Assembly (NCBI GenBank): GCA_050084515.1
Contig: CM114271.1
Span: 22,134,001-22,198,000, forward strand
Length of the DNA stretch: 64,000 bases
From: Blasia pusilla
Lineage: Eukaryota
Direction of reading: 5' to 3'
The notes below the pieces were generated by a model, which worked only from the letters and a program-made list of their open reading frames with translations, was not told the origin of the DNA and did no database searches. How positions within the stretch are numbered: the stretch's first letter is position 1; every line of letters begins with the position of its first letter. Made by a program: the position numbers and the translations under genes. Shown piece by piece: positions 11,756-49,600 of the stretch.

Positions 11756-12271
11756 TGGTATCGGAACGATAGGAGAACATCACTTGAAATTCTTGGTGTT
11801 TGAGGAGAGAAGAAAGGCAACAGAAGGCACAATTTCAGTTTGGGAGAAGGAAATTTGGTTCAGAACTCAGTAGGTGCAGATTTCAGGTAGAGCTTTAACA
11901 GTGATAAAACTTTGGAGGTATTTTTTAGGGCTTCCAAGTCGATTAAGTTATCTGGGTCCGCGGTAGCTAGAACGATGCTAAAGGCTTCTTATAGACTTCT
12001 TGTAGAGCTCTTAAAGAGCTTTCCAACACATCCAAAATCGCTCAATTCTGACATTCTGAGCTCCTGCAATAGCAATTTTAGTGTAGGAAAGTGCAATTAG
12101 TGAAGAATAGTTGTGTTGTTTGCTCTGTACATGCCAATTTCGACTAGTTCTTTCATATATTTGATCAATTTTGGAAAATTTCATATCGATTTCTGTGTAG
12201 GAGTGATCTATGCTTCAATTGGAGCAGTAGGAGAGCTTGAAATTATATTTTTGTGAGTGAAATAGTTCGTT

Positions 12272-16911: not shown

Positions 16912-17210
16912 GTTACAGCTAAGCTCATGAGACACCTGAACTGCTATATTTGGTACTCACACGAAGTAGGGAAGCTTAATCTTGGTTAGTCATTTAAGCA
17001 CGATTATCTTAACTAAGGTTAGTTAATCACAATAAGTCTAACTCGAGACTTTGGTTAAGGTTAGGGTTATGGTTGCTTGTACATATCCTATATAATTGAG
17101 AAGAGGACCAGCCTCCACTCATTCTCTCATTGCAAATTTTGTTCTCCATAGTGGTGTGTGTGTGTGAGAGCTGTTTCCCACCAGTTATGCTTCTTTAGCA
17201 ATTTTCCACA
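16899..17210 (+). repeat. Copia 3' LTR
   Basis: Follows the PPT, direct repeat of 11444-11755, ends ...TTCCACA. Confidence 0.93.
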
Positions 17211-20200
17211 ACACCTCTCCTCCACAGAATGATGCGGCTACCATGATACTCCTCTCCATAGAAATTTCAAGAACAGGAGCGTCCTTTGCATGGACTGTCC
17301 CTCAATCAAATCACTAGGCCAAGTGATGGCGCTGCTAAATGTTGCTAAGATCGCCATCTCTCCTAGCCGTCGCTCGATCACTCCACCGATGAATTGAACA
17401 AGAAATAAGCTAAGGCGCCCTTCACCTAACTGCCATCTTGGTCTGTAGGATGCTAACTCCTCCCTGTAATCCAGGGAAATCCATATCGGGTACAATACTG
17501 CGCCACCAACCAAGACGTCGTAGGACTCTCCATCGGTCACTATCGCCTTGGCTCGCACCAGGCCCTCATCTGTAGGATGTGTCGGGAGAATCCTCACCAA
17601 AACCTGCTATCGGGTGATATATTGTGTGGTACTCATTCCATCCAAGGATATCTGTATTCGGAATGGACAATGCTCCACATGCGCTCTCGTCAAGCCCAAT
17701 CCTCTGAATGACACTTTCCCCAACATCAGGGATTGCGCTCCTTAATCCAACAAGATGCGCAGCGGACTAAGAACACTACCTCCTGGACTCACCAACTCAA
17801 AGACCTCTCCCCGGTTATCCAGCAATACAACATGAGGAGAAGCCATGGCACGCTCTATCGTGGATCTAGCGAGCATCTCCGCCATCCTAGCTGTCGCGGC
17901 CCGACCTGGACGGCCCGAGCATAGGCTCCAAGGGCAGGTTCATCACCTCTTATGCAATCACCCCTGAGTGTGACGCAAGAACACCAACTCTTTGGTCACA
18001 TAGCGTATACATAGCGGCGAGCTGAAAAACCTCCGCGGGCATTTCTCCCAACGTCATAACATCGAAAGCAGAAAATAAAGAAGCACGGTATAGAAGAGTG
18101 GCCCTCCCCAACAACGTGCTCGACAGATGCTCTTCCTGAGCATCAGAAATAGGGGTCGTTGCACTAGCTTCTCCCATCGCCCTCCGTGCCTGCACACCAA
18201 TAACATCACCAACTCTCTGGGAACTCTGATCAGGACCCATCAATGGGGTCTTCATCGCCTAAAACAATGTGAAAGATTGAGGAAGCATGGTCTGTTTCCT
18301 TGCTTTCCCCCTCTGTGGATCCAACTCGGCAACGGCTCCACGTGTTACAACAGCGGCGGCCTCCATTTGGGAAACCCCGCACATCCAACCAGGATCCTCC
18401 ATATCTCTGGCTGCTCCATATGACGTCGATGCCAGTGATCCAGCATCGGATAGTCTCAATGCCATAGTGGCAATCTGCTATTGTGGCTTCTGTATCTAAG
18501 CAACCATCCTAGCTTCACGCCCGGCGTCTACCTTGACGCGTTTAGGTGGTGGAACTCTACCTCTTCCACGGGCAACTCCACCATCCCCTCGGGAAACTCC
18601 AGCTCCTCGTTCCCCAACGGGACCACCTAGTGCATGAACCCTGGGCCCACCATGACCGGCAACTCGCTAGGGTGCCCTCTTTGGCCCTCGGTCCGGACGT
18701 AACTCAAGGTGTAGGCAGAAATACCTGGTGTGACCGAACTTCAGACAATAGTCACACTGATAACCTCCTGATGCAGCACCATCTCCTCCTCCCTGCTCGG
18801 GCGCGTGTCCATGACCGTGACGGGTGCAATCGCACTGGTGATGGGCTCCGCCACATGCCCAACAAACAATCGTAGGCAGTTGCTGCTGAGCCGCATATGA
18901 GGGCGCATGTCTCTGTGGCACGGCCTCTCGATATCCTCCCTGAGCTTGTCGTGCCACAAACCTATCTTGGAATCCACGTTGCTGCCCTGGTGGTGCAGAC
19001 AGTCGTGACTGCCCTCGCCCAAAACTCATGGCTACGCTCTCCTCCGCCATGTTGCACTCAATGTTCTCGGTGGTCCTAAGAACATCTCTCAACGTAGGTA
19101 AGGTGTTCATAAGAAGCACCCCCTCCCATACATGTGTTCGCAGGGTTCGATCCAGCATCGCCTAGCATGATTGGATAGCCTAGGACTCTTTCACCTCCTC
19201 AGTGATGTTAATCAACCAGCATAAGCGGGTGCAGGTCTCACACAAACTCTCACCCGGGCGCCTCTAGAAGTCGTGGATGCTCCGCAACTTCTCCATCCCT
19301 ATCCCCTCGTAGTTCGTCCGCAACTCAGCAAAGAACTCAACCACGGGGTTGAACCTGGGATGAACCCAACCCGACTGGACGGTGCAACTGCTCCAATGAG
19401 ACTTATCCCTCCTAAAACATCATTGGTGGAAGAGGAAGTTGCCTTTTCCTCCTCATATAGGAACGGCTCCGTCCATGACACATAGTGTGGATCATAGTAG
19501 AGTCGCCATACCTCAATCTCAGAGAACTCATGGTAATCGTCTATGGGTGCCCCCTCTAGGTGCTAGAACATACCGCTCCATGCTGTGAATAGGTTGAACT
19601 CTCTAGAATTCCTAGCCCAGTGTGAGTCACACCAACTCCTAAACTCCGCAATGAAGTCGTAGGCTCTATAGTGCCAATAGCACCCGTAAACCTATGTGGT
19701 CCTCTACCCCAATCTTCCATCTCATACGCCCAACTGGTAGGACCACTCAATGTGTGTGGTGATGTACTAACAAACTACTCTACACTCTCCCCCTTGTCTG
19801 AAGACGACACAAAAGGAGATCGAGGTGGTCCCTCACATGGAGACCCTCGAAACCTCACGCCACTCCGCATTAACCCTCTAGAGCTACTCTCAGGTCCACC
19901 ACCTCGCCTCTTAAAATTTTGAAAGGACGTCGTGATGACCCTCGTGCCCCTCTCACGCAATCACTCTAAATCTTGCGAGTAATCACTCTATCACTCAACT
20001 AAAATGCGGCACTCAATCTGCACTCTCTTAGTGAGACGTGTGGTGTGCCGCAACAAGCGGCGTGGTGCGGCAAATCAACTACTATTGTCTCATCAAAAAA
20101 ACATACCCTCAACTTTGGACATCCCACACACGTGTATGTCCCCTAAACCATACATCAATGATACTCTCTCCATCAACACGAAACCCAATATCCCAAATAA

Positions 20201-21537
20201 CTACCCAATACCCGGAAATCCCTAACACGTGCACGGAAAAAGACCATGATGGGTAACCTGAAAATAATGTCGATGTTGCTCCTCAGCAACCGTAAATCTT
20301 GACCACAACTCGATTGTGAAGACAAACTTCTCCAAATAGCACGTTGTACTCCCCTGGTAGTGACGATGCTCAAATCTCCTTGATGTGCGGTGTGGGTCCA
20401 ACGATATGGTGCGGCACTAGCGGCACGAAATGGCTACAAACGGCTCGGGAATGGGGTGCGGCACTCAACGGCATATCCTCCTCAACAGTAATACAAAATC
20501 TGCGGTGAGGGTGCAGCTCCATGATAGAGATGGTGCGGTGCGGCCACGAGCAGTAGGACGCGGAAATCTCCTGCGCGTTGCGACTACGGGCTTCCACCTC
20601 AAGACATAGCAAGCCGGGAAGAGAAATGCGACCCCATCAATCCAAAAAGGTCACCGTCCAATTAACAACGGTGAAGAACGCCGTCGACGGCGGCCAACGG
20701 ACGGAGCAAGGACGGCCCCTATGGACAATGAAAGTCAATAGTAATTACAATATCTTTCATGTGGGTAAAAATGGTTCTACTTTGGCCTTATTCAAAAATT
20801 GAAAGTTCTTTGTTTTTTCCCACTCCACTAACTCCTTAAACTAAGGGTCAACTCACTAAAATTACTCACATTTAGCTTATACTCCACTAAGCCCTATAAA
20901 TATTGGGTCAACACCCACTAAATAAAGTTTCCACTCACTTTAACCTCAAGATCCTAAGTTTCACTTGTCCTTTCTCCACTAATAAAAGATATTTTTTAAA
21001 ATTTTCTACCTCACCTAAAAATTTACCAAGAATTTTGAAATTTGCTCCTTCCTCATACGGTGGCTATGGCAGCTCCACAAAAATGATCATTACTTCTTGC
21101 TCCCATGTTCAAATTGTGCATAGTTTCCCAATCTACAACATTGTTAAATCAGCTTCTTCATACAACCTTCCAATAAAAACTCACAAGGATTGTCATGCAT
21201 CCCTTCAATCTGCACTCCTACAAAAACTTCAATAGCGCTTCCGCGCTGATTTCTCCCAACAAAAATTGCAAACCTGTAAACACAACAACCAGCAAGCTAG
21301 AAGGTACTCCCAAGAGCACTAGCATGGGACAAAAAATCCCCATACTCAATTTCTAACAAAATTTTGGCAACGCTTCCGTGTGCCACTCTCCCGTACAAAA
21401 AATCATCAAAGGAATCAGCAAAATTGAGCGGCTCTTGCTCTGGTGAGCACTCCCATGAACTGCTGAATGGGGAATACAGTCCCCAACCTGCAACAAGAGC
21501 GAGTGACCAGCAAGCTCCCCCATTGAAACTCTCTTTG

Positions 21538-22046
21538 TAAATCAAGTAGATCTCTCATCAACATCTCACACCAAGCTCTCCTTGGTATACACTCTCTCTC
21601 ATGTCAAACCAAACCCACTCTCCTAATGAGAGGCTTAGGTTACACACACAAGGCAAGGAGGACCATACCTTCGCCGCCTCATGCCAAGAGGTTCAACAAA
21701 GAGAGAATGAGCTTTGAAGCTCTCTCTCTTGGAGATATACCCCCTTCCCTCTCTCAAGCTCTCTCCTCGGTAACCTATGCTTGCAGGTCACCTCCTTGGC
21801 TCTTGACTAGCTATAGCGGGTCAAAGGTCACTTCCCAAAGTGGAAAGTCAACTATACTCCAATGGAAACTTACTCGAAATAGTGAGTTTCTCTATATGAC
21901 TCCAAATGCACCAAAAAAAAGGGAAAACCTTATGTCTCAGGTTACCCGTGGCCTCAGCAGATCCTCCTCAACCTCTTGAGGCTCTTCTCTAGTATCTCTG
22001 AAGGCGCTCTACTAGATCTCGCTGATCTATCCTAAAAGTGGTGACA
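21538..22046 (-). repeat. 5' terminal repeat A1 of copy 2 (no B segment)
   Basis: Homology to A2 of copies 1 and 4 stops at ...TGATTTA, exactly where B2 begins in those copies. Confidence 0.9.
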
Positions 22047-24195: not shown

Positions 24196-26699
24196 CACCA
24201 CCTATCCTTTGGGCTTGTTGGCTATGGAGAGCCAGATTGCTGAGACTTCGATGAGGAGGTCTGATGCAAAGTCCTTAGATCGAGAGGCGGGTGAGGAGAA
24301 GATAGATGACCGAGACATTCACGAGGATGGAGTACTCTTGGAGTACCTACGTATTGGCAGCGTCGCGAGCACAATGGGCAGTAGAGAGCGGGATCGGATC
24401 CTATAGCGAGCCACACGGTTTCGGTGGGAGGGGACACATGTGTTGCGAGTTTGGGAGGATGGTAGAATACGTGTAGTGCCTCATCCTTTAGAGAGAGCAC
24501 GTTTGGTGCGTCATGCCCACAAGGAGTTTGGTCATTTTTTAGTGAAGCGGACGTACAACTTGCTCTAGATACAGTATTAGTAGCAAGGTATGGAGATTGA
24601 CATTCAGCAGTTTGTTCCCAGGTGCGTGGTTTGTAATAGGGTGTGGGCATCGTTCAATGCTCTGACTCCATAGTTGCATCCACTTTCGATCATGGGTTTA
24701 GGTTATAGATGAATTTTGGATTTTGGAGGACCCTTACCTTTCACGGAGCGCCATAGTTGTTATGTTTTGGTGATGGTCGAGCACTTCTCAAAGTGGATAG
24801 AGTTGGTTGCATTGCTTGACAAAGCGAATGAGGGAGTCACGTATGCCTTCCTAGATTGAGTGCTGAGTCATTACAACGCCCCAGATGAGGTGTTGAAAGA
24901 ACAAGGTACGGAGTTTCACAAGAGTTTCAAGCCTTGTGTGATTAGGCGCTGACTGACCACCGCACCACTTCGCGAGATCATCCTAAGGCGGATGGACTAG
25001 CGGAGAGTGTTGTACATACGGTGAAGAGAGGATTACGCAAGTATGGATTGCAGAGAGATCAACTAGGAGATTGGTACCTTCATTTTTTGTGGTTAGCGAT
25101 GGGATACACATTGAGCAAGCAGGCATCCTTAGCGCCTTTTTCACCGTACTTGCTGCTTTATGGCCGAGAGCCAGATTTACCTGTAGCCATTCGTCGAGAT
25201 GTTGGTAAGGTGTTAAACCTTGATGACCCGGATGTATGCATGGATGCAAGCATGTTCTCACACGACTGAGTTGTTTAGGAGAGTGATGCCCATGGCATTT
25301 GAGAACTTGGCGATTGCGCAACATCGAGATACTTTGAGGTATGCCACTATTTAGGAAGGTGGTTACGGCCCTACTATCCGTAGGTTTCATAAGGGAGACT
25401 ATGTCTACTTGCAATAGATGGCACCCATGATATTGGATATAATTGCACGACACACTATCTTGAGAATGCGTGACATTTTGCCATTTGGTATTCTCTTATT
25501 GGAGGAACGCGATGGTATGGTTTGAAAGGACCATGTGCGTAACTGTGCGCCATGTCACCTTCCAAACATTGACGGTACAATTGATTTGAGCTTAGCAGTA
25601 GTTCCTACAAGTTTGCAATGTATGTTGTGTGATTCCGCCCGTTGTGCAGCCACCATGCTAGTTTGTGATGGGTGTTCGAGAGGGTGGCATATGGCATATA
25701 TGTCTGACACCACCTCTCATGAGGGTTCCTCGGGGATGATGGATGTGCCCCAAATGCACATAGAGTAGGTAGTTCTAGATTTCGACTTGCGTCTATGACA
25801 TGGATGACAAGAAGGCGACATGAGCACCCGACCTTTTTGCTCTTAGCGTCCGAGAGATGTATGTCATGGTAGGTAGGAATAGATGGCTATCTGGAGTTAG
25901 AGGAACCTAACCACCAGCTAGGGGAGCAATTGAAGATATTTTGGTACTTCTCATCTCGTTGTTTGGATGCCATGAGTTAGCATGGAATCATGTGTGTTTG
26001 TGTGTATGTTTGATGACAACGATGTATGTTGTGTAGCGATGTGTATGCGCATGACAGTTGTTACGTCTCTTGGGATAGATCAACAAGATCTAGTAGAGCG
26101 CCTTTGAAGATACATGAGGACATCCTCAAGAGGTCGAGGATGACTTGCTGAGGCCTCGGGTAACGTGCGAGAGCAGGTTTCCCCTTCGTTTCGGCTCATT
26201 TGGAGCAATGTTGAGGAACTTACTATTTTGAGTAAGTTTCCATTTGTGGCATAGTTGACTTTCCACTTTTGGAAGTGGCTCTTGACCCGCTACAGCTCGT
26301 CAAGAGCCAAGGAGGTAACCTACAAGCATAGGTTATTGAGGAGAGGCCTTGGGAGATGGAAGGGGATATACCTCCAACAGAGAGAGCTTGAGAGCTCATT
26401 CTCTCTTTGTTGAACCTCTTGGCAAGAGGCGACAAGGTTATGGCTCTCCTTACCTTGTGTTTGTAACCCAAGCTTCTCATTAGGAGAGAGGGTTTGGTTT
26501 GACATGAGAGAAAGTGCACACCATGGAGAGCTTGGTGTGAGATGTTGAGAGAGATTTGATTGATTTATTGGAGATACTTTGGTACTTCTCGTCTCTTTGT
26601 TTGGATGCTATGAGTAAGCATGGGATCATGAGTGTTTTTATGTATGTTTGGTAACAGCAATGTATGTTGCGTAGCGATTTTATATGCGCACGACAAGGC

Positions 26700-31132: not shown

Positions 31133-34100
31133 AACAATAGGTCCCGAGAGCAATATACATTATCATGCATGATATTAAAATTTACCAGAGAGAAATGTAA
31201 GGAATCAGTTCGTCACTAGGTCCGCACGTTGGTCTCCTAACAGACTCGCCGAGCTACTGTCGCAGTGCCGCCACCCGAGCATTGCCACGTAGCAGCGCAA
31301 CCACGGTGCCACCTCCTTCCCACGTCTCCCATGAGTCCTGACCCGCCCTCGATGCAACTCCCTGAGTTCCCGGAAGGTCTGCAACCCTCCTGTCGGTTTC
31401 CCGTCCCGTGAAAGCCCCGCGGGAAGACGCCGACGGTTACCAAATATGAGTTATTCTCCTTGCTAGGAACTTTCGCCGACTAAGTCTTACCGGCACCCAG
31501 TCACTTTCAGGAATATAACGACCGGGACGGCCGGCTACAAGAACCACATGTTTCGTCCTTTCGGAATCCGTGCCGGAGCTTGGAAGCCGCGATCGGGACT
31601 TATCGTTTTCTCCCGGCTAGCTGAACATAGAAGTCCGACTCTAGCGGACTATGGGATGGAGACGTCAGAAGTTTAGGTGGATGGATTCATCCCGCACAGT
31701 CGCATGACCAGGTATCTGGCCAGCTTTCGGTCTTGGAGCCTTCGACCCTTGCGCCTTGGTGATTGAATGTACCTACACGCAGGGAATTTATCTTGTCAGC
31801 CTCGCGTTACGTAGGTACGGTAGCCCCCCACAAGAAGGGCCAGGGATTCTATGTCAGTGTGGACCCCGCCATTTCAGTAAAGTACTCGTTCTTTACTCAA
31901 ATTCCTTCCCATCTTTGGGGACGTGATTTGGACCTTTACTTTTCGTGCGACAAAATATTCGAAGTTCGAACGGATTCCATTCGCCGTGCTTCGTCAAGTC
32001 GATGTAAAATGCTTCTGTTGCCCCGGCGTTGGCTACGCTTTAGTGCGCCGTGGGACACTACCGTTAGTGTCCCACAACCGGTAGATGCACACTCGTGATC
32101 CTTTAGTGGGCGATCTGTTTCATATCTATTTCGTAATCTTATCACAATTAGTCTAACTAGTCGTGAACTAATACTTGTTATACTTCTTTTAAAATTACAC
32201 CAGAGAAGAATTTGTGTGGAATGCATCCTGAATATCTTTTTAATAACACTAGTGAGAATGCGTCAATTTTTAGTACATAAAACTCCCTCGTTACTCAGTT
32301 TGGGCTTTTCTCTTTTCATCGAGGAGTGGGAAGTTTACACACGTCGAGGGAGAACCTTTAATTAGGTCTCTGCCCATTGGAGATAATGAAACAGAGTGAT
32401 AGAAACAACTTTTTTGTACTGAATTGAGTTGTTTGGGTGGTATCTCGAACAGCAGGCAGCTTGCTCGAAGGTGAAAGTTGAGTTGTTCTTGCAACGTAGT
32501 ATTGGAAACCTTGTAAGTATTCAAACAATGAGCACCTTTCGTCTAGAACTACCGCCCAAAGCTTCGTGATTCATTGGCCTCAATTGGCTGGAAGCGTAGA
32601 CTTTTACCGTTGCACGGGCATTCTCACTCTAGTAAGAATGGCCGTGCGATGCACCGGCATCAAAATTTAGCATATACAAAATTAATCATATCAATTTTTT
32701 TTCAATGGATGAAGTATTACAAAGTCTAAAAAGCATGCCAATATAACACTTGACACATGTAATGTTATTTTAATTTTAATTTAGCACTTCATTATATACA
32801 ACATTCCTAGTGTAAATACCTATTTTGTTAATAGCCTTTTCATTATCTGTCATAATATGAATAGAATTCCTCGAGCCTACTCTTGACAAGGCAACATACA
32901 ATTGCCCATGAGAAAATACTGGATTAGGCAAGTAGATACCAACTCTATCTAATGTTTGACCTTGAGACTTGTTAATCGTCATTGCAAAAGCAGGACGTAT
33001 AGGAAATTGAAATCGTCGCAAATCAAATGGTAGGCAAGAATCAGACGCAATCAATGGAATGCGTGGAATGAAAACTCGAGCTCCGATGTTTTTTCTAGTG
33101 ATGATTTTTGCATCTATAAGATGTCTACTAAAGCCAGCTATCACCAGCCGAGTCTCGTTTGCTTGTCCCTTGGCTCCATTCATATTCCGTAATAGCATTA
33201 TCGGAGCTCCAATCTTCAAAGTCAAACAATGAGGTGGCAGTCTAGATGGTAAACATGTGTTCAAAAATTCTGTTGGATAAACAAGTCTCATCTCATCGTC
33301 GGAAACGGTATCAGCACTCAAGAAAGTATGCTCTTGCAAAAACAATATAAATCATTAATGATAAGAGCGATGATAGAAAAATGTAGCAATAGGTAATGAA
33401 AATATAATAATGATATTCAAGAACATAAATATTACCTCTCCTGGAAATCGAGACATGATTTCCGCATTTATAATATCTGTCGTGCGAATCCACATCGTCA
33501 TACAACATACATCGCTGACATACCATACTCACATATATACATAACATAGACGAGAGTATCCACAAACACAAGTGTACCACAATTGAAATCCGTGAAAGAC
33601 CTATTGTCATAAAACACGTTTACAATCACATACAATCGAGCCAAACCCATTCCACGATGGGAGAATCTAGGTCAAAGCTTGCGGGAAACACCATAGCCAA
33701 GAGCTCTACTCACTACCAAGGCTAACTCCCAACGCAACACGCTCAACTCAAAGAATCGTTGTTGTTCTTTGAGTGCACTCCACCTTATATCCTCCAACCT
33801 AAGAGCAGGCCCTCTTTGGGAAAGTCACCCCAACGAGTAACCCCAACCCTATGTATGGAACCGCATCTCTACCAAGCCACTACGGTCCTACATAAGGAAT
33901 GGCCTCTACTAGCACACTATACTCTCGACATAATCCGTATGGTCATGACAATTGTCGTGCGAATCCACATCATCATACAACATACATCGACATATCATAC
34001 TCACATACATACATAACATAGAGGCGAGTATCCACAAACACAAGTGTACCACAACTCGCCCCCTAATCGGCGGTTAGGTCCCTCTAACTCCGGTAGCCCT

Positions 34101-34224
34101 ATACATCTACTACATGCTATACACCTTCTTGGGTGCCGAATCGAAGGCCGGGTGCTAGGTTGCCCCATCATTAGTCGCACATCGTAATCCATATCATGCA
34201 AAGATCAAGTCATCTACCTCTCCT

Positions 34225-35500
34225 AAGTACATCGAGAACAAACCCACCTTCCAGAGGAACAACATCCATACGTGAGTCAAACACATCATGTGCCAACCCC
34301 TAGAACACCGATCACACACCAACATACGGGCTGCGTTACCAGCAGACCCACACAACATGCACCTCAAGCTAGCATGTATCATGGCTAAGCTTGGGTCAAC
34401 AGTACCATCCACATTTGGAAGATGACATGGCGCACAATTACGCACATGGTCCTTCCAAACAACTCCATCACGACCCTCCAACATGAGAACTCCAGAAGCT
34501 AACACCTCGCGCACTCGTAAAATAGTGCGGCATGCCGTCACATCCAACGTTGTCGGTGCAACTGCTGCAAATAGACATAGTCCCCACATGGAACCTCTGA
34601 ATCGATGGTCGATAACCTCCACCCGAATGGTTGCATACCGCAACGTATCCTGTGTTGAGCAATGGCAAGATTCTCAAAGGTCGTTGGCATAACTCTCCGA
34701 AAGAGCTCCGTCCGCTAAGAACACACCCTCATCCACATCTCGGGTCATCAAGGTTCACCACCTCACTAGACTCCCACAATTGTTCTTTGGCAAGTTTGGA
34801 TCTCGGCCGTATAACAGAAAATAAGGTGAGAAGGAAGCCAAGGATGCTTGGCGATCGAACCTATACCCCATGGCTAACCATGGCAACTCGAATATCCAGT
34901 CTCAAGATGCCCCTTCAGAGGCCATACTTGCGCAATGCCCTCTTCACCGTCTGAACCACACACTCGGCCAAACCATCGCCTCTGGATGATCTCGAGGCGT
35001 GGTCCGATGATCAATCAACGCCTTGTCACACAAGACCTGAAACTCACCTTGAAACTCTGACCTGGTCGGTCAAGCACTTCATTTGGTGCACCAAAATGAC
35101 TAAGCACTCTATCCGAAACGCATCGCCGTTCCTCACTTTCCTTGTCCGTAATGCCACCAACTCAATCCACTTGGAGAAGTGTTCCACCATCACCAACACA
35201 TATCGATGATGTAAATACCAGTCCATGATATGATCCTCCATAAAGTCCACACTCCAACGGTAACCCAACCCCATAATAGGCAAGGGGTGTAATTGTGGTG
35301 TAGGGGCATTAAATGATGCCCTCACCCGGTCATAAACCATACAACGTGACACCAAGCTGCTGCACCTGAGTATGCATGCCACGCCACCAATCTTGGCCAA
35401 GGAGTACGCTATACGACGCTTTACCCCAAAATGTCCCAACTCCTCATGGGCATGTCGCACAATGCGCTCTCTCGAGCCAAATGTGGCACTACTCGTACTC
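34225..35500 (-). pseudogene. Integrase plus PHD finger (copy 3)
   Basis: RHAHEELGHFG, WSVDF, VEHFSKW, TDQ. PHD CMLCGSAGNAARMLVCDRCSRGWHMMC. Confidence 0.9.
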
Positions 35501-36232
35501 TACCATCCTCCCACACGCGGAGAATATGTGTTCCCTCAATCGATACCTCTTAGCACGTTGAAGAACACGGTCTCGCTCCTTGGCACTCACTATGCCCGGA
35601 ACCCTCTTGGTCCGTAGGAACTCCAACACCAACACATCATCATGAATATCACGCTGATCCGTACACCATCTCCAACCTTAGGATCGAAGGTGGCCATCTA
35701 TCCTCGACTAGAGTAAGATATCATGTGGTCCTCCATACTAGAGTCCACACCGACCAACATAAAAGGCGGATGCATGCCAACCTGGCACCATTTCCTCATC
35801 AACCTCGCCATGCCATCTAGCCCGTTGTATCCTCTTGGCTAGTACATGGGTTCCTACTCAACCCATCAAAGCATCAAGGTTGGCAACTCAGGTCTATGTA
35901 CCACCGGAAGTCATACTCTGTAAGATAAGAGCCCACCTGCAAGCTTCCCCTCGTCAAAGCTTGTCCGACTCGATCAACCACTTGAGCACTCTCCCTCATA
36001 TGTGGTGATCGATAGAAAGGACAAACTCCATGTGGGTGCCAAACAAGTAACACCTAAGTGCAATAGCCTCCACCTTTGCTTGCTGAACTCCCAAACCACT
36101 TGGATAGATCACATGACCCAAGTACTCAACATCCTCATGGAAGAACTTACACATCAGTACTCGGATAAACACTCCCAAACCATGGAAGAACTTTCAACTT
36201 TCATGGGATCAAAACCATGAGCTTTCAACCGC

Positions 36233-36718
36233 TCAAAACCATCTGCAAATGTATCGATGCTCCTCCACCGTGTTCTTGAACACCAAGATATCATCAATGT
36301 AACACCGAACAAAATCCAACCCCGCTAGGATCCTGTCCATCACTCTTTGAAACTCGGCAGGGGCATTCTTCAACCCAAAGGGTAAGAATTTCCACTGGTA
36401 AAAACAATCCTTGCCATGAGAGTTGACACCCAAAAATGTTGTCTTGGCCTTGTCACTCTCCCAAATCGGCAATTGATGGTATCCTGCCCGAAGATCCAAA
36501 GTACTGAAAATCTTTGCCTGTCCCACCACATCAAAGATCTCCTCAGGTGTAGGCATGGCATACCTATCGACCTTGGTTTGCCGATTAATAGGACGGTAAT
36601 CTCCACACATCCGCCTATCCATGTAATTGCCATGCATATCCTTTTTAGCAGGCATGATAGTGGCTGATGCATACTCTCCATGCGACAACTCCACTAATCC
36701 AGCCTCCAAAAGGTCCAA
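36233..36718 (-). pseudogene. Reverse transcriptase core (copy 3)
   Basis: RMCGDYRPIN, LDLRAGYHQ, LPFGLKNAPAEFQ, CYIDDILVF. Confidence 0.95.
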
Positions 36719-36819
36719 CGTCCTACTCTAAGGATGCAAAATACTACTCTCCTCGCCCCCAGCCGATGCCTCTACCGTCCCGGTAGCCATCGAGCTCATT
36801 ACAAGGGGTGGAAGACCCA

Positions 36820-37800
36820 CAGACATAGTCCGAAGTCGACGCTGCTCGGCCATACCAAGACTCAAAATCCAAGTCAAACAATTCAGGTCCATGGCCTGAC
36901 CCAACACATGACGTCGTGAAGCCTCAGAAATAGAAGCAACCATTGTCACACCAGTAGCAAATCCCATCGCACGCTCTCTCTCATCAACATTAGGCTCCAC
37001 CAACTGTCGCACATGAGAATCCCATACAAGCCCCGGACCACCTTCCCTGTAGGCATATGACGAGGGAAAACTCACAAATGTGGGTAGTGCATCCTAGGCT
37101 GGCCCACACGGTTCACCACTGCCATGGGTGACCGATCAATAACCCTCACCACTTGAGAAAGTCGCCCAAGATATCAAGATACTATCCATTGTAAGGCGAG
37201 GATCATTTGCCTTTGCATCATATGCTCGATGTAGAACCTCCTAGGCAACAAGTTTGTCCACCACAAGCGTGGGCGATGTGCCGTGAGCCAACTCGTTGCA
37301 TCCAACAACACCGCTGGTCCAATCCAAGACCGCACCTCATGAACACTCGCCATCATCCGGTCCGAGTACCCAACAATGGAACATTCTCGGAATGTAAGCT
37401 AGAGCACGTGCTCGATGAACTGAAGATGTCGTAACACCCGTAACATCTCCCAAAACAATCGAGACCTAGGGTCATGTAATCCCTCACCACGACCAAAGAC
37501 GTGTATGACCCCACGATATGGCCATCCAAAGCAATCACCAAATCCAGAGGACCAACCCTCTCAAGGTCCTGCGCCCCCAACAATGCAATGTGTGATGGTA
37601 AAACGCTTTGGTACCCTGAATAGCTGATGGCGACAACAACTCAAGATATCTCGCATCAATCGACCAATATGTCGGGATGAGACTCTGGGCCGTCTCATCT
37701 CGCTCCACATACACGTATCTCCTCAAGACAGAATACCGGCTGCAACATCTGACCAAACCAAGTGCTAATCCCACCAAAGAGATCTAACACACAAATGCCC
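36820..37800 (-). pseudogene. C5 DNA methyltransferase domain (copy 3), frameshifted
   Basis: VLDLFGGIST, YVYVERD, GPLDLVIA, ENVPLLG, AHRPRLWWTNL, ERERAMGFATG, SRRHVLGQAMD. Confidence 0.9.
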
Positions 37801-38064
37801 TCCAGCAGATCTTTGCCATACAATGGGTGTAGTATCCAAAGGGGATAACCTAATGGACCAGAAGTAAGAGTCCGCGTGGGGCCTCCTCTTCCTCGTGAGG
37901 TATAACATGACCTCACACCAAGCCTCTGCACTAGGCGTCGCCTCTTGCCGTAGTGCACCGCCTAAACTCCAAAGTGGCACATCCAACGATGAGGATGCCC
38001 TTTGCTGCAAAAATAGGGACCTCCTCTACCTCCTCATGCACGGGAGAATCCATAAGCAGAAACA

Positions 38065-39009
38065 TTACCCTCCAAAAGTCTCTGGCCAAGTGACTACTCC
38101 ACTAAAACCAGCCACAGATGCTAACACTCTTGGGGAAGACCCTCCTGGTCGAGCCCCAGAAATAAATCTCACAGGAACTTGGCTCATACGTCTATCCTCG
38201 GATTTCCAACCAGGTCTATAAGATGCTGTCTCAGTCCAGTAATCCATCTGAAAACCCATCAGGTACAATACTGCTCCTCCAACTAGTACATCATACGACT
38301 CGGCTGATGTGACTACCGCAGATACTCCCAACCGGGAGCTATCAGTCGCATGATCTGGTCTCAACTGTACAGAAAACTTCTCCCGTGTCATGAATTGAGA
38401 CCTATCATTGGCTCCTCCAAGTGATGTTTGAATCTGGAATGGGCAAGGCTCAAGCTCTGACCTCCGAATACCCAAACCAATACATGCCGCCTTTCCCAAC
38501 ATCAAAGGTTGGGCACCAGAGTCTAACAAGACTCTATCTGGTCTATACACCTGTCCTATAGGACTCACCAATCGGAAGATCCCACTCCGGTTGTCCAACA
38601 TACATACACCAAGTGTAAGCCTCTCACGATCAATGGCTGGCCGGGCTGGTAATGCATCCATCTTCGTCGCTGTTGCCTGCCAAGTAGCACTAGTACTCAA
38701 TGCTACACTTGACATAGAGGGTCGCTCCACCGCAACATCCTCATCCACCTCAACACGTGTAGCAATAACACCCCCACGTTCACACAACGTGGCTGCTAGC
38801 TGAAATACAGGAGCTAAGTCAACTCCTAAAGCCATCAGCTCCGTGGCCGAAAATAATGGGGATCCCAACACTGAAGTTGCTATCCGCAATACTGCACTGG
38901 ATGCTGCATCTGTGTCTACTACACGCAATGTAGATGCCTCAGTCCCCACTGTCGGCTCAATAGGCTGCATAGGAACCATGGATGGAGTCCTAAGCACCTC
39001 AGACAACAA
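38065..39009 (-). CDS. Retrotransposon aspartic protease-containing ORF (copy 3)
   Basis: VLLDSGAQPLMLG (D-S-G active site) and YDVLVGGAVL; 314-aa open frame. Confidence 0.85.
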   Translation of the reverse strand: MLSEVLRTPSMVPMQPIEPTVGTEASTLRVVDTDAASSAVLRIATSVLGSPLFSATELMALGVDLAPVFQLAATLCERGGVIATRVEVDEDVAVERPSMSSVALSTSATWQATATKMDALPARPAIDRERLTLGVCMLDNRSGIFRLVSPIGQVYRPDRVLLDSGAQPLMLGKAACIGLGIRRSELEPCPFQIQTSLGGANDRSQFMTREKFSVQLRPDHATDSSRLGVSAVVTSAESYDVLVGGAVLYLMGFQMDYWTETASYRPGWKSEDRRMSQVPVRFISGARPGGSSPRVLASVAGFSGVVTWPETFGG

Positions 39010-39043
39010 GAATGACTAGGGAAGCCTAGCCTGCCTCCCAACC

Positions 39044-40666
39044 TCACCCCTCTGTGGGTCCAACTCCACAGTAGCACCATGTGGCTCGACCGCTCGAGTG
39101 GCTCCTCTCGTAATGGTGATGCCTCAACTTTGTCTTTGCTTTTCGCCATATAAGAGAGATCATCCCCTCCATAAGAGGTGGAAGCCCCTGCTCCCGAACT
39201 GATCTATCTTTGGATACCGACCATAGTAGCCAACTCGCTCCAATCTGCTCAATCCTGGCAGCCATAGTTGACTCTGTCGTAGTGGTAGGGGTAGCCACCG
39301 TAGGCTCTCCAACCACTGGTCCACCTCTACCACCCCTACCACCTCTACCACCTCGGCCTCTCGGAGCTACTCCACCACGGCCACGGCCTGATCTCAACTC
39401 TGGATGAAGATCAAAGCAACGCTCTCGAGGATGACCGGGTCTCCCGCAATGATCACACTGAGTTGGGGCCGACTGAGGCCCATCCTCCAAAGTCCGTCTC
39501 CCATCCTCTTGGCGACAAAACTTCCTAACATGATCACCTCCGCATGTTTAACATGACTGTCCTTGCTGCGGGGCAGCAAATGAAGGCAATGGTCTCTGCG
39601 CAAGTGTCCCTCTAGGACTTGACTGAGGTCGTATGTACCCCCCACGACTCCCACTACTACTACCACCACCACTACTACGAGACTGTGAGGTGGGCGGCTG
39701 AACACAAGAAGTAGTAGTTGTATCCCTACTGAAAGCGGATGTCACCACTCTCTCCTTCACCATGTTAAGCTCAATCTTCTCAGATAGAGCAAACACATGG
39801 GTCAATGTGGGTGAATCATCACTCATAAGAGTAGCATCACGTACCCTACGACGCAAATCTCTATCCAAGATCCCATACCAAAACTGGACTGCCTGATCCT
39901 CAATCACTCCCTGGGTAACTTAAATCAAGCGTCGCATACGAGTGTATGCCTCACGAAGACTCTCACCAGTCTTTTGCTCAAAGTCCTGAAGATTCCTCAA
40001 CTTCTCCGTCTTCACTCCCTGATAGTTCTTCTTCAACCTCTTGAAGAACTCTGCAACCGGGCTGAACGATGGTGGGGCACTAGTACCTCCACTAGTACCC
40101 CCACTAGTACCTCCACTGGTATCCCCACTCCAGCTCGTACTCGTACCACTCAACGTCGGGCTGGCTGGCATAGTAGGAGCACTACTACCAATACCACCAT
40201 GGGTGATAGACACATAGCCTGGACACCAATATTGTCTCCACGCCTCAATCTCAGCAACATGGTCTTTCCTAAACTCATGGTAATCATCCATGGGTGGTCC
40301 TTCAAGTCTTTGAAACAACCCCTTCAAGCCAAGAAGGGTGTAAACAACGTGGCGTTCATAACATCGCATATCACACCACGTATCAAACTCCTGCATAAAG
40401 TCCTCCAACTCAATGGTGCCCACTGCACCCGAGTATCGTCGTGGGCCCTTCATGGCCCCATATCCACCGTCCATGTCCCAAATCAATGGAGCTGCAACAC
40501 TCGATAACAACGTAGAAGACTCGGTGTTTGGAACACCCTCGTCCTCCTCTTCATCAACTGTCGAAAGTGGAAAAGGTAGCCGATACCTAAATCCACTCCG
40601 TGTGAAACCACCACTGTCCGCACCACGGTCCCCAACCAGACCACCCGACAGCTCCGTGATGACCAA
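39044..40666 (-). pseudogene. gag (copy 3)
   Basis: YSGAVGTIELEDFMQEFDTWC, FEQKTGESLREAYTRMRRL, CCHC knuckles, RGG repeats. Confidence 0.8.
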
Positions 40667-43600
40667 CGCCGATGCCGCACCACCACTAAGTAACCAAGTG
40701 ACGTCGATGTCGCTATACTATTCTAGCTCTACTAGCTATGGGTGTAGGCAACCTAACTTTTCATCACCACAAGAAGTCTCCCACGGTCTACTCGTCATCC
40801 CTCCAGCCTCACTACCGGTAGCACACAGGAGTAACACTACTCTGGAAATCAGCGTCAACCCTAACAATGGGCGCACAAGCAAGAAGCACCGATGGAGGGG
40901 ATCCAAACACAGGAAGTCCAACGACAACCCTCCAATCGCAAATGGAAATCAAGGTAACATAATCCACCAAACGTGGTGCCCCCTGAATCCACAAAACCCA
41001 CCACACAATTCTAACGCAATAGCTACTCCACCGCGGGTCGATAACGTGCTAGTCGAACTCGCAGTACCTGAAAATATCACCTGCATGGAGAGGCTACACC
41101 GTACTATGCGCTAGAGGTACATCAACCAAAAACCTGAGATGCATAAAGCGCCTAACACATCTCCGAACAACACCAAATGAGCTACAACAGTGTGTACACT
41201 GGCATAGTTAAGAACTCAGCAGTTAAGCGTCCTCCAGGCATAATAGCCCAAAGATGGGTGACCAGTTATGCAACACTCAAATCCCAAATCCTGCAAAAAT
41301 TGCCCCACGCCCAAGCAAGCAAGCTTGCTTGCTTGCTCCTTGCTCCTTACTCCGCCTCTCACGCCCACTCGCCCCGAGCTACCACGAGTTGAATCAAATC
41401 TGTTTCGACCAGAATTCAATTGACCACCATAGCTATCTCTCCACAAAAAATCAGCTACAACCGAGCTCTGTACTCCGAGCTAAACATCAGACAAACTTGT
41501 TGTCCATACACCTCCAGAATCGCAAATCCGACAACGCTTCCGCCAAGTTCCATGCAAGCACAAATCCGCAACGCTCCACACACTCGAGTAGATAGCTTCA
41601 CATGAGATCACAATACAATTAGCAACAGGAACCTCTCACCCGATCTGGATGAACTTCAACAGAGTTTCCGCACTCCAAGCTCTCCACATCAGAAAACCGT
41701 CGAACACTAACTAGAATCTTCAATCCTTGATAATTTCCAACTCCCTTGACGAAATCCGGCGATCTAAAGCGCGTTGGAAAGCTCTCAGCATGGCGCTTCT
41801 TTCCCAACCAACACCGCATCAGATTCACACCTCCAAAATAGGCCACAAGCCACAAACATCCACGGCTGAGTACACAATCAGCCCTAACCAGATCCTACTG
41901 ATCTACAATCGAAGCTACCATCGATCTACTGCAGTTCTTTGAGTGAAATCCCTGAAAGACCTACTGTCATAAAACACGTATACAATCACATACAATCAAG
42001 CCAAACCCACTCCACGATGGGAGAATCTAGGTCGAAGCTTGCGGGAAACACCATAGCCAAGAGCTCTACTCACTACCAAGGTTAACTCCCAACGCAACAG
42101 GCTCAACTCAAAGAACTGACTGTTCTTTGAGTGCACTCCACTTTATATCCTCCAACCTAAGAACGGGCCCTACTGGGAAAGTCACCCCCAACTGAGTAAC
42201 CCCCAACCCTATGTATGGAACCGCATCTCTATCAAGCCACTATAGTCCTACATAAGGAATGGCCTCTACTAGCACACTATACTCTACGACATAATCCGTA
42301 TGGTCATGACATATCCACGATTGTATTCTTGGTTGACAAAATGGATGTACCCCTCAAGAAATCAATGTCACTCCACTTATTAACATCGTGTCCATAAACA
42401 ACGTCAATGAGATCATTCATCCTTGTCATTTTTACAATTATCGCATCCGGAACTTCTATAAAATCCTCTCCAAGGTCCAAATGTAATGGCACTCAACCCT
42501 CTCCTATCTCTAATAACCACGTTGCAAACGCTTCTTGCTCTTCTCGTGCATATCCTACGAAAAATATAAGATCAAGAAATGAGTACATATTAAAAATTTT
42601 AAAAAAACACATGAAATGAAAAAGGAAAAATATTAGGTTAATTCTTAAATACCTTGTAAAGTATTAACTCTCATGTTGCTAGTGAGTTTCAATACTCTCA
42701 CGTCAGACCAAATAAGAGATCTCCTCAATGTTGCACGCACAATTGTAGCACGATATCCACGACGAACAACTGGAGGAAGTTGTCAAAAGTCACCACCGAA
42801 TAAAATGATCTTCCCCCCAAAAGGCAAGTCTCGTAATCGACTATCCATCAAACCCATGATATCTTGGAAAGTACGATTAACGACCTCGAATGCATGACGA
42901 TGGGTCATAGGAGCTTCATCCCACACGATCAACTTCACCTTTTGTATAAGGCGGGCCATATGACTATTGATCGATAGGCTAGAAAATAGATAACAAAATA
43001 ATATGTGAGGAACATTTATGAAGGATAAATCTAAGAATATATCAATAATATGCATGCCATAATTATAAAGTAAAAGGAACCAAAATCTTAAATCTAGACG
43101 TACTTGCAAGTGGAGCTTTCATGTACTTGAATAGGAATCTTGAATCGAGAATGAGCAGTACGACCTCCATCCAATAATAAAGCGGAAATTCCTGAAGATG
43201 CAAGTGCAAGAGCTATATGACCCTCGCTTCGTACCATTGCAAGAAGAAGGTTGTACAAAAAGGTTTTTCCCGTTCCGCGAGGACCATCGATAAAGAAATT
43301 TTTTTCCTAAAAATCCATATTTTTAGTGACAAAAATGCACTTTAAAAAGAAAAAAACTTAAAGAGATTTAAAGAGTAAAAAAGTCATCTTAAAATTTACT
43401 ATGCATAATATCCACTTACAGAAGGTGGCGCATCTTGTAAGACATCGCGAAAAGCATTACAAATAACTTCCCAAACAGCTCGTTGTCCATCATTTAAAGA
43501 TATCTCTCTTGCTCTCACACGTTCACAAAGCATATCATGATCGTAGCAGAGCTCTTCCTCTTCTAGACGCGAAATAGATAAATTACGAGTTTGGAAATCT

Positions 43601-46600: not shown

Positions 46601-49600
46601 GTGAAGTTGTCAAATATGGTAATTGAATCTTACCATGCCCACAACACACACCAAAAGGCGAGCTTATAAACCTATTATACTTCACTCTCTCACACTTCCA
46701 ATGTAGAGCATTGCAACTCGGACAAATAACATTCATAAGTCCAACACTAAAACGGCCAGTCATACTATCAATATGGTCTCCCAACCTAAGAATTCGAATG
46801 TGCTTTTCTTCAAAGTTAGGAATACGTGCAATATTATGCAACTTTTTCAAGTTCACAACCCTTCTGGATCCCACATTTGGAATTGAGGCATGTACATTGT
46901 CTTCATTTCCTTCACAATTGGCTCCAGTGGCATCACTCCTTATCAACAGATCGCCAACATGTGCAATCTCATGTACTTCATCCGAAAAAGATCCCACATT
47001 TGGAATCGAGGCATGTACATCCTCTTCATTCACTTCCATGTGGCCTTCACGATTAGATCCATTGGCATCACTCCTTATCAACGGATCGTTAACATCTGTA
47101 AACTCATGTACTTCATCCAAATGAGCACGTCTTCTTCTTTGGCCCTTAGCTCGAGCTACTTGACGCATGTGACATAATCGTAGAGGATTGGTAGGAACTC
47201 GAAGACTGCAAGTAGAGGTTAAGAAATTAATATATATGATTATAATAAAAACAAATATACATACAAACATATCTATATTATAATTTGAATATACAATTTA
47301 GAAATATACATTGGAGATGGTACGACCACAATCCTAGAGTTTGGAATAGCTTCAACTTCATGATGTACCATTATTGGCCTGCAAAAAATGTTGTTATTAG
47401 AAATCATTCATAAAAATTTAAGACCACCTTATAAATTTAAGCATACCTTATATTAGCTTGAGCATGAAAGTCATTAGTAGTCATGGCCTCGACTTCTTCT
47501 GTAGGAAGAAGATTGTGCCTCCTTCTCTGGCCTTGTGCTCTTGCAACTTGAAGCATAGCATGTAATCCTCGGGGGTTGGACGGAAGTGGTAGACTGAGAA
47601 AAAAATATTTATAAAAATCAAGTCATAATAATTATATTAAAAAATTCAACTTCAAAAAAGACCAATCAAAAATAAGAAATTGATAAGTGGAAGAAACATA
47701 CATGGGAGATGATGTAGTGTCTATTGAAGAATGAAGATTGTCATTGGTAGGTGTTGCTCCCAACCTGGACAAAGAATAAGAAAAGTCAAAATAGGAAATA
47801 TACTTCTGAATATATTCATAAGAAATGGTAGAAATGTTATACATAAATAAATACCTTCTACTATTTATGGCAGATGAGTCATCGATAATGGGTGGTTGTA
47901 ATTCTTCCATCGAAGCAACATTCACAATAGCTTCAGTAGATCTCAATTGAACTAATTTAGCATGTCTTTGCTTTTGTCCTTGAGCTCTCACAATTTGATG
48001 TATATCATCTAACCGTTGCGGGTTCCATGGATTTGGAAGTCTATAGCACAAACATGAAAGATATTAAAGTCACACAACAAATCTAGAGTGTGCACATATA
48101 GTTACGATATCATTATATTATCATAATGCAAAGCATCCTTACAGTGGAGATGACAAAGTCGTTGAATGAGTTACGAATCGCATATCCTAAAGCGCCCTTC
48201 TCTTTCTTTGAGATGCAACCCTTCTAGCCTTCTTATATGCAAGATTCTCTGTTTCCTCCGAAATCCGCTTAGAAGATGGTGGACTACATGAAATGTGATG
48301 ATCATGCTCCACATTAGGTAAAAAGACTACATTGGTAATATCTGCGAATGGTCTTTTTTCATTCCGCCTCAATGGTTCCTCTTGACATTCATCCATCTTG
48401 TGACAAAATCAACCATCCAAGAAAAATATGTATTGACAATATATCAAAAAATATTAGAAAAAATAAGAAAAAAAAAATTTACCAAAAAGCTTAAACTCAA
48501 GTCTTGGTACGTGAATATTATATTCTATATAAAAAATAGAGCAACACATAACTTAAGTTTTAATAAAAATCTGAAATGGGAAAATCATTCTAACGGGCAA
48601 TGAGACTCAGCCGTACTCATCTCACTTGAGTCCTCCAAGCAAATTGTATGACAGTCACTAATTTCCCATGACCCCGACCCGCAACAATCACGTACAAATG
48701 AATGGCTAGATGCTATAGGGTCCGAGGAAGGGATGCAATCATGTGTGGAATCTGTATCTTCTTCTCCCTCCTGACCTCCAACTACTCCTTGTGAAATAGA
48801 ATGATGATTCACCACGGGCGTGGTTAAAATCCTAGATGCAATCTCATCATAACTACAACTATGATCATTTCTCAAAGGGCTAATACTAACATTAGGAGCA
48901 TTAATCCCATTTTCAAAAATCGGCAATGGTACATAGCTAGGACTTGAAGCCTTATCCCTATTTTCAAAAATCGGTGATGGAACATAGCCATGACTTAAAG
49001 CATTATTCCTATTTTCAATGATCGGCGATGGAACATACTCCGGACTTGCTATTTGTATTACCTCTACAATGTCGACATCTATAGGTGTATAATCCCTTTC
49101 TTGTTCATCAAGAGGAACGTAGAACTCACCATCGCTAAAGCGTAAATCTTCAACACTCATTTATAGAGTATCCTGCATTATCCATATAATTATTTTAATA
49201 AAATAAATATTTAAAATAATAAAATAAATACTCAATAGAAAAGGATACTAAATTTCCACACATGAATATTAGTACACAAGCAGAGAAAACTTACTTTTTT
49301 GAGTCACTCCACTCCCAAAGAAATGAAACTTGATCGTTTGCTCAACTCAGCAATCTCAAACACACATATCTGAAAATAAAACGAAGATGGGTTTTTGATG
49401 ATTCATTGAATATAAAAAATATATAATACTCTTTTGGCTACTTATCTCCAATATCTCGACTATCGTCACTAATGTCTAAATCCGCATAATCCACACGCCT
49501 ATATTCCAGGTCGAACTCATCACCAACATACCATCCCTCTGAATCATAGACGGAAGTAGAAGAATATTCCCCATCGTCAAGATCTTCAAGAGGGCAACTA

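Follow-up and report, generated by a model that had tools for sequence, protein, structure and literature searches.

A Ty3/Gypsy lineage in the liverwort Blasia pusilla with split direct repeats and apparently separate ends for reverse transcription and integration

Introduction

Retrotransposons with long terminal repeats (LTRs) are defined, and found by software, by their two identical terminal repeats, a rule that the lineage described here breaks. Its members lie in a 64,000-nucleotide stretch of the liverwort Blasia pusilla (GenBank assembly GCA_050084515.1, contig CM114271.1, positions 22,134,001 to 22,198,000 of the forward strand), which we call the window and in whose own numbering all coordinates are given. 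They are Gypsy-type elements of two families, I and II, with repeats in the order A1-internal-B1-A2-B2, and the complete copy on which this account is built is copy 3, of family II. Split direct repeats of this kind are the mark of Ngaro/PAT/DIRS-type elements, of which the PAT/Ngaro/TOC1-type are thought to integrate as circles. The likeness lies in the order of the repeats. The difference is that Ngaro/PAT/DIRS-type elements encode a tyrosine recombinase and are not known to make target-site duplications (TSDs), whereas the elements in the window have a DDE integrase, 4-bp TSDs, TG…CA termini and an LTR-type primer-binding site (PBS) and polypurine tract (PPT).

The layout itself is not new, having been recorded once before, in an alga, without a mechanism. 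KnitGypsy-Dnmt3 of Klebsormidium nitens is a Gypsy element with Dnmt3 in Pol that is described as combining a DIRS repeat structure with a Gypsy domain composition (de Mendoza et al. 2018, PMC5890265, legend to Fig. 4c); the passages of that article that deal with it give no PBS, PPT, TSD or mechanism. As described there, it shares with the present elements the Gypsy type of LTR retrotransposon, a DNA methyltransferase (DNMT) domain inside Pol and DIRS-like repeats, and it differs in its host, a charophyte alga rather than a liverwort, the comparison being one of descriptions only. A 2026 preprint mentions 'streptophytes (Gypsy-DNMT3)' and does not discuss repeats. In searches of the openly accessible literature, neither the liverwort elements nor a mechanism by which a DDE element would come to this layout turned up.

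Two other known systems resemble the present elements in single features. Retroviral cDNA ends can be joined in a palindrome, a route that is accessory at most. Cleavage of such palindromic LTR-LTR junctions, in which the ends are fused head to head in 2-LTR circles, has been reported for the DDE integrases of foamy virus and HIV-1 (PMC1180852, PMC1905944, as far as these reports describe it). The palindrome found here differs in that it lies inside the reverse-transcribed LTR and has a 2-bp spacer, and its cutting would be obligatory. Similarly, self-priming in place of a tRNA primer is described for the Tf1/sushi and Tcn1 groups of chromoviruses, Tcn1 elements being present in mosses and club-mosses (Neumann et al. 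2019, PMC6317226). As that account presents them, these groups have ordinary LTRs and a chromodomain, whereas the elements studied here have rotated repeats, a PHD finger replacing the chromodomain, and a DNMT.

Results

Layout and boundaries of copy 3

Copy 3 lies on the minus strand and reads, in that sense, TSD-A1-internal-PPT-B1-AT-A2-A-B2-TSD. A repeat search over 32-44 kb of the window found two copies of A (in three blocks of 83-96% identity) and two of B, while BLAST of A and B against the whole window found no B beside A1 of copy 3 on either side. The terminal features are as follows.

42312-42315, minus strand: 5' TSD, GATA (sequence; empty-site joint skipping 8838 bases)
41944-42311, minus strand: A1, the sole repeat at the 5' end, starting TGTCATG and ending CA
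33953-34054, minus strand: B1, ending CACGACA
33951-33952, minus strand: 2-base spacer AT, the centre of the B/A palindrome GACAATTGTC
33584-33950, minus strand: A2
33583, minus strand: single base A between A2 and B2
33478-33582, minus strand: B2, the 3' terminus of the element, ending CACGACA (repeat search, BLAST, empty-site joint)
33474-33477, minus strand: 3' TSD, GATA

Read on the minus strand, the 5' end is gtg GATA, then A1 (TGTCATGACC…GGATTTCA), then the internal sequence CTCAAAGAAC…; the 3' end is AGGGGGCGAG, B1 (TTGTGGTAC…CGCACGACA), AT, A2 (TGTCATGACC…GGATTTCA) and, beyond A2, an A, B2 (TTGTGGTAC…CGCACGACA) and GATA ttat. A1 and A2 are 93% alike, B1 and B2 92%.

An empty-site form of the insertion was found in DNA contigs from two runs (two contigs of X5, with 90 letters on the shorter side, and one of X1). 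These contigs join 33472 to 42311 and skip 8838 bases, with five letters that fit either side. Because 8838 is the sum of an 8834-base element and one 4-base duplication, an empty copy of the target must exist elsewhere in the DNA, and the boundaries of the element are confirmed. Copy 3 itself is decayed, with 147 stops in one sense frame. The lineage has a very high summed contig depth in the DNA runs, a depth that is not a copy number, and contigs of X11 and X16, runs guessed to be RNA that may be DNA, cover parts of the element. Small shares in air-metagenome runs and in the runs of other organisms were left out of account.

Recurrence of the layout in family I and in related loci

The same arrangement is found in family I, at two 3' ends and one 5' end, and family II has in addition a solo A-B.

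7540-7667 (B1), 7670-8186 (A2) and 8187-8314 (B2), plus strand: 3' end of family I copy 1, with spacer AC between B1 and A2 and a PPT just upstream
25929-26056 (B1), 26059-26566 (A2) and 26567-26695 (B2), plus strand: 3' end of family I copy 4, with spacer GT
21538-22046 (feature 21529-22046), minus strand: 5' end of family I copy 2, A1 only (BLAST, sequence)
14077-14551, plus strand: solo A-B of family II, flanked by AGTA at 14073-14076 and 14552-14555, within a Copia integrase gene

A1 of family I copy 2 is preceded by the internal sequence of another copy. Removal of the solo A-B together with one AGTA restores, by eye, the frame of the Copia integrase (…GGEYLSIEFDDYLLQNGIQRQ…). The two families are far apart in their repeats: their A sequences are only about 49% alike, and the last 43 bases of B, which are conserved, are the only part of the repeats that can be aligned between them.

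When metagenome contigs were scanned with aligned DNMT pieces, 77 loci were obtained, many of them sharing terminal DNA sequence with family II. For a census of layouts, A and B of locus L029, together with the 150 bases after its A1 and the 150 before its B1, were mapped onto all loci, and loci sharing flanks were removed.

14 distinct metagenome loci: complete A1 starts, each after a different, unrelated sequence, with B before none of them and A-B-A in none
L018, L022, L029, L045 and L052 (5 loci): complete 3' ends, PPT-B1-A2-B2 followed by flank
L003 and L012: incomplete 3' ends, cut after A2 and after B1, respectively
L015, L021/L024, L025 and L030 (4): 3' ends of the form PPT-B followed by flank
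L035/L037 (1): rearranged

When metagenome loci and window copies are taken together, B occurs at 0/16 distinct 5' ends, and B-A-B is present in 8/8 complete 3' ends. Perfect 4-bp TSDs lie outside the A start and the B end in all eight two-ended copies: GATA (copy 3), AGTA (the solo A-B), AAGG (L029), TCTC (L022), CATA (L045), ATGT (L025), CACA (L035) and TGTG (L030, if one substitution in its terminal TG is accepted). Since L029, L022 and L045 have mismatches at the fifth base, the duplication is 4 bp and the element runs from TG to CA; a 5-bp TSD with an element starting at G was rejected on these mismatches.

The short 3' ends, in which a single B is followed by flank, could be taken as direct insertions of a unit-length form. 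For L030 this was rejected, since its 3' flank is common to the B-A-B locus L052, and recombination of B1 with B2, deleting what lay between them, best explains its short form; the other three (L015, L021/L024 and L025) may be direct unit-length insertions.

The layout is characteristic of a whole lineage, and its presence in two window families and in related bryophyte-type metagenome contigs excludes chance or a single local duplication. A preliminary description of this DNA had proposed the A1-internal-B1-A2-B2 order in both families and argued against a chance duplication. Its layout and coordinates hold in the repeat search and in BLAST against the window, the recurrence in family I is as it stated, and the metagenome contigs bear out its argument. 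It had named A and B together at both ends, or the absence of B1 from other copies, as what would speak against it; the census above found neither.

The members in the window are mutually nested. A Copia element has split family I copy 2, which lies on the minus strand with its 5' end at 22046, and the nested insertions span 8320-22046. The Copia LTRs, of 186 bp, lie at 11496-11681 and 16954-17139 and are 93% alike, and it is within this Copia element that the solo A-B sits. Copy 1 terminates at 8314 inside copy 2, and copy 2 lies within copy 4, whose sequence continues from 22047.

B is rich in TG/UG motifs (TGTGTTTGTGG, TATGTATGTG, GATGTATGTTGT), for example at 33478-33582 and 7540-7667. Judging by these motifs, B2 could aid 3'-end formation at the 3' repeat only, where it lies downstream of A2, besides its role as an integrase end.

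Encoded domains and lineage

The coding remains of copy 3, and the DNMT piece of family I copy 1, are these.

39923-40717, minus strand: gag region, with a weak Retrotrans_gag match (Pfam)
36800-38000, minus strand: decayed C5 cytosine methyltransferase-like region in the interval between protease and reverse transcriptase (RT) (motifs I, IV and VI across frameshifts, by eye)
36236-36727, minus strand: RT (Pfam RVT_1, E 5.9e-19)
35047-35499, minus strand: integrase, comprising the zinc-binding part and the beginning of the DDE core (Pfam rve, E 0.0012, under the cut-off)
34197-34673, minus strand: C-terminal open reading frame (ORF) piece with a PHD finger (Pfam PHD, E 2.8e-5)
3322-4059, plus strand: DNMT open piece of family I copy 1, 246 aa, with PCQ and ENV motifs

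The gag piece of copy 3 has 65% identity over 186 aa to a Marchantia polymorpha gag-PR-DNMT protein, and its integrase piece shares 37% identity (E 2e-20) with the integrase of the protein P0040, which bears PF17921 and PF00665; both of these domains are present on P0037-P0041. In the single ORF pieces of copy 3 the DNMT was missed by Pfam, which matched a DNMT in family I copy 1 and in the metagenome locus L001 only. Read with X at stops, family I copy 1 gave Pfam matches to DNA_methylase (E 4.1e-8, above cut-off, in the counterpart of the decayed DNMT-like region of copy 3), RVT_1, RT_RNaseH (E 4e-30) and PHD. L001 is a near-intact relative, with three ORFs in one frame and single stops between them; its matches are zf-CCHC, DNA_methylase (E 7.6e-13), RVT_1 (E 6e-33), RNase H (E 6e-35), Integrase_H2C2 (E 3.6e-18) and, cut by the contig end, rve (E 3.2e-4), and its DNMT is in frame with gag and RT.

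The 246-aa DNMT piece matches 43 longer proteins, mostly of Marchantia polymorpha and Calypogeia fissa at 50-62% identity and one of Sphagnum. Many of the Marchantia and Calypogeia relatives are called 'hypothetical proteins', and several of the matched polyproteins bear RVT_1, RNase H, DNA_methylase, Integrase_H2C2, rve and PHD. In the window elements and in L001 the DNMT is placed between protease and RT, whereas the alga-like polyproteins P0038-P0040 have it between RNase H and integrase; this difference in position suggests separate captures or a rearrangement.

The order in Pol is RT-RNase H-integrase in L001 and RT, RNase H, PHD in copy 1, and RT lies upstream of integrase in copy 3. The C-terminal domain identified by Pfam in copies 3 and 1 is PHD, not a chromodomain, and an Atlas look-up returned generic Gypsy clusters only. 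No tyrosine recombinase (Phage_integrase) was matched by Pfam in the sense (E<=0.01) or antisense (E<=0.1) frames of copy 3, in the sense frames of copy 1 (E<=0.1) or in the ORFs of L001. By their predicted domains, then, the elements are DDE-integrase Ty3/Gypsy elements with two accessory domains, DNMT and PHD.

The preliminary description had likewise seen in them a Gypsy element with a DDE-type integrase and TSDs and had called for confirmation that a tyrosine recombinase ORF is lacking, and the Pfam results, in six frames of copy 3 and the sense frames of copy 1, and the TSDs agree with it on both counts. It had also held the layout to be typical of tyrosine-recombinase elements and foreign to Gypsy. 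The elements do share the Pol order, the H2C2 and rve integrase and the short TSD of Ty3/Gypsy and depart from it in lacking two identical terminal LTRs. On one point the statement needs correcting: KnitGypsy-Dnmt3, as described in its legend, is a Gypsy precedent (PMC5890265).

Reverse-transcription signals

Four short features mark where reverse transcription would start and where the second strand would be primed.

42106-42118, minus strand: putative self-primer in mid-A, CAGTTCTTTGAGT (A position 194), the presumed start of R, complementary to the bases adjoining the end of A1
41932-41944, minus strand: self-priming PBS, ACTCAAAGAACTG, which overlaps the last base of A1 (complementarity; minimum-energy fold with the 5' end, z -2.77)
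21529-21538, minus strand: primer site of family I copy 2, ACAAAGAGAG, complementary to mid-A CTCTCTTTGT
34055-34064, minus strand: PPT, AGGGGGCGAG, directly upstream of B1, conserved in family I and in metagenome loci

The self-primer complementarity extends over 13 nt in copy 3 and over 16 nt in L026, L029 and L033; in family I it covers 10 nt and has another sequence. At least 10 nt of complementarity were found in 11/18 of the 5' ends tested, the remainder being decayed or variant. An RNA fold from mid-A to just past A is closed by the PBS pairing, with z of -2.88 in L029 and -2.77 in copy 3. The PPT, of the AGGGGGGCGAG type (AGGGGGCGAG, CTAGGGGGGCGAG or CTAGGGGGGCGAT), abuts B1 in all 3' ends read, and in none of them is there a PPT ahead of A2.

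A sub-variant stretch follows A1 at L030 3890-4030 (TTTGAAAAAC…) and at about 4257-4340 of L051 (TTCAAAGAAC…). It sets the common leader back by about 64-80 bases, and a perfect complement to it was not found in A.

With this self-primer arrangement, which is that of the Tf1/sushi and Tcn1 groups, R would start in mid-A, and the 5' end of the minus-strand DNA would be the end of A. In the standard two-jump scheme of retroviral reverse transcription, the extent of the LTR is set by the positions of PBS and PPT. A PBS after A and a PPT before B therefore lead us to expect a cDNA of the form B-A-internal-B-A, that is, an LTR composed of B-A. No integrated copy of this form is present among the copies examined. 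From these signals, the ends made by reverse transcription and the ends used in integration apparently occupy different places in these elements.

Integration signals and junctions

The integrated termini, TGTCATG… and …CACGACA, are inverted repeats of each other (6/7) and are conserved between the families, those of family I being TGTCACG … CGCACGACA. At the junction of B1 and A2 the same termini face each other as CA-NN-TG, with a spacer of exactly 2 nt in 8/8 cases (AT, AC, GT, GC, AT, TC, GC and AT). The flanking inverted repeats are conserved across families, and in copy 3 the B/A site is a perfect palindrome, GACAATTGTC. The substrate of a retroviral-type integrase has a recessed 3' CA-OH and 2-nt 5' overhangs; cuts after each CA of the B/A site would yield just such a processed substrate.

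The joint between A2 and B2, by contrast with the constant spacer of the B/A site, is variable. Seven of 10 junctions carry a single additional base (A in three, G in two, T in two), and one carries TAG. They read CA-A-TTG in copy 3 and L029, TA-A-TTG in L052, CA-G-TTG in L045 and L018, C-TAG-TTG in the solo A-B, and TTTA-T-TGG and TTTTA-T-TCG in family I. The two others are longer: L022 has 17 extra bases and then CGAG, the last 4 nt of its own PPT, and L035/L037 reads A-end, CTCAAAGAA (nine PBS bases), ATGC, TAG, B. One genomic contig has …TTT-GAG-TTGTGG at this joint. PBS and PPT remnants at the A/B joint are what is expected where both ends of a finished reverse transcript join, and the joint looks like an end-joining scar.

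L035 12380-13310 (= L037) is a rearranged copy with a normal 4-bp TSD, CACA. Its 3' part consists of an inverted A fragment, unrelated sequence, A 181-340, 9 nt of PBS, ATGC-TAG and B2. The piece of A before the scar is exactly A 181-340, followed by the PBS, a span that minus-strand strong-stop DNA would be expected to have beyond a 16-nt self-primer at 165-180. With this arrangement the copy resembles a reverse transcript that went wrong and was nevertheless joined to B and integrated.

An alga-like DNMT-Gypsy relative, with a DNMT about 34% identical, is present at L064 8970-9909 and L065 1-1720. It has an 824-bp LTR unit with a second unit directly after it (LTR end adjoining LTR start). 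The unit is preceded by a G8 PPT and followed by an 11-nt self-primer site, and 201 nt into it lies a single CA-GC-TG palindrome with 8/10 inverted flanking bases. This relative may share the rotated design; its tandem, in sequence without flanks, could be an assembler loop. The traces of PPT, self-primer site and palindrome suggest that the design is old.

Two 78-nt direct repeats, 135 bases apart and 86% alike, lie at 46909-47121, outside the elements studied here.

Discussion

The reading that we favour is that an integrated copy is a normal cDNA rotated by one B, and we give it an even chance of being right. We infer the order of events, the joining activity and the cutting of an internal site by integrase. 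Reverse transcription would yield a linear B-A-internal-B-A, and integrase would cut the upstream LTR open at its B/A junction, the cuts being staggered by 2 bases. The PPT-proximal B end would be joined to the A end of the cDNA, either by prior circularisation or by end joining of the released B piece, and the A-start and B-end termini would then be inserted with a 4-bp target duplication, giving A1-internal-B1-A2-B2. A possible reason for the opening of that LTR alone lies in the order of strand-displacement synthesis: once the second strand transfer has taken place, it is the upstream LTR that becomes double-stranded first. Integrase could cut the upstream LTR early and hold the released B piece of about 115 bp, the free ends being joined later. 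The opening of a 1-LTR circle at the B/A site was rejected as a route, since its product would be A-internal-B only. The stronger proposal, that this rotated cycle is obligatory, with the DDE integrase acting on the internal CA-NN-TG palindrome of the upstream LTR and the cDNA ends joined together, is one that we put forward tentatively and would not yet call probable.

Several points weigh against such a cycle. The pathway is deduced from integrated copies, and the start of R is a presumed one. A symmetric 2-LTR circle has two identical B/A sites, and opening of the other would give A-B-A-internal-B. This mirror product occurs in 0/16 5' ends, so the process must be directional, and a simple circle model needs an added asymmetry. 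B1 and B2, and likewise A1 and A2, are within an element mostly no closer to each other than to those of other copies; the copies look like a burst, with star-like divergence and independent decay, and the regeneration of B2 in each cycle is therefore not demonstrated. Ordinary mutation could account for the single-base differences that set most A/B joints apart, and clear remnants of PBS or PPT are found in only 2/10 joints, one of them in a rearranged copy. Finally, the integrase match in the decayed copies of the window is weak (the rve match below the Pfam cut-off noted above).

The directionality could be had without a circle if RT alone made the extra B. In that case the functional LTR would be A and B a 3' untranslated segment; the plus strand, having reached the A end, would switch back to the PPT/B border and recopy B, and integrase would trim at the CA of the B/A site. 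Such a route would be one-sided without any choice between identical sites, in keeping with the lack of A-B-A at the 16 5' ends, and would dispense with circles and host end joining. The start of B2 often falls 1-4 nt within the end of the PPT, which is what a switch to that border predicts, and Tf1-type integrases are reported to strip extra bases from cDNA ends. However, the A end and the PPT/B border have no homology to guide the switch, the recopied B would be single-stranded and need a second strand, and B would still stand at the left end of the cDNA and have to be cut away. The 9-nt PBS copy with ATGC in L035 and the 17-nt insert in L022, moreover, resemble joined ends and not a guided jump. 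On balance we regard this route as unlikely. We find it harder still to credit a DIRS/Ngaro-like reverse transcription coupled to a DDE integrase, in which the RNA would run from A1 into B2, the minus strand would be started in B2, where the RNA has its 3' end, a template switch would allow the left part of A that is missing to be copied from A2, and integrase would insert the product. The layout equals that of Ngaro/PAT/DIRS-type elements (the legend on SymbioDIRS gives 'A-coding region-B-A-B'), B is GU-rich and resembles downstream poly(A) elements, and one contig of a run guessed to be RNA, which may be DNA, spans A2-B2 into the flank. This improbable scheme leaves unexplained both the self-primer site at A1, which covaries between families and closes the fold, and the conserved PPT abutting B1, and it does not predict PBS or PPT remnants at the A/B joint.

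Two further explanations are already contradicted. That the element belongs to a tyrosine recombinase, its own or one acting in trans, and integrates as a circle is highly improbable: the repeat layout would fit, but six frames of copy 3 contain no Phage_integrase match, relatives carry Integrase_H2C2 and rve, and the termini are TG…CA with perfect 4-bp TSDs in 8/8 copies. It is hardly conceivable that the layout is a local accident or artefact, arising from tandem duplication within a single 3' LTR, from nested insertion or from mis-assembly. The copies are indeed old and nested in one another, as such an origin would have it, but the same layout is found in two families in the window and in five distinct metagenome loci from other assemblies, an empty-site form gives exact boundaries, and the solo A-B has a TSD of its own.

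If the rotated cycle is true, split direct repeats are the trace left when a joined-end cDNA is opened at a site in its interior. This topology would in that case also underlie Ngaro/PAT-type elements, and the lineage would be a living link between the LTR elements that use a DDE integrase and the tyrosine-recombinase retroelements. What is added here to the layout recorded in the alga is evidence that reverse-transcription ends are separate from integration ends, and the scar-like A/B joint, from which a concrete and testable model of replication follows.

Given their abundant contig depth and their relatives among Marchantia and Calypogeia proteins and metagenome contigs, these are elements that LTR finders may mis-annotate or split. 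Their anatomy separates the ends that RT makes from the ends that integrase uses, which normally coincide. They thus offer a natural system for asking how a DDE integrase chooses its substrate, whether a joined-end or circular cDNA can be a productive intermediate, and how the split direct repeats of tyrosine-recombinase retroelements arose. Moreover, since they carry a cytosine methyltransferase of their own together with a PHD finger, they bear on the question of why retrotransposons capture chromatin enzymes.

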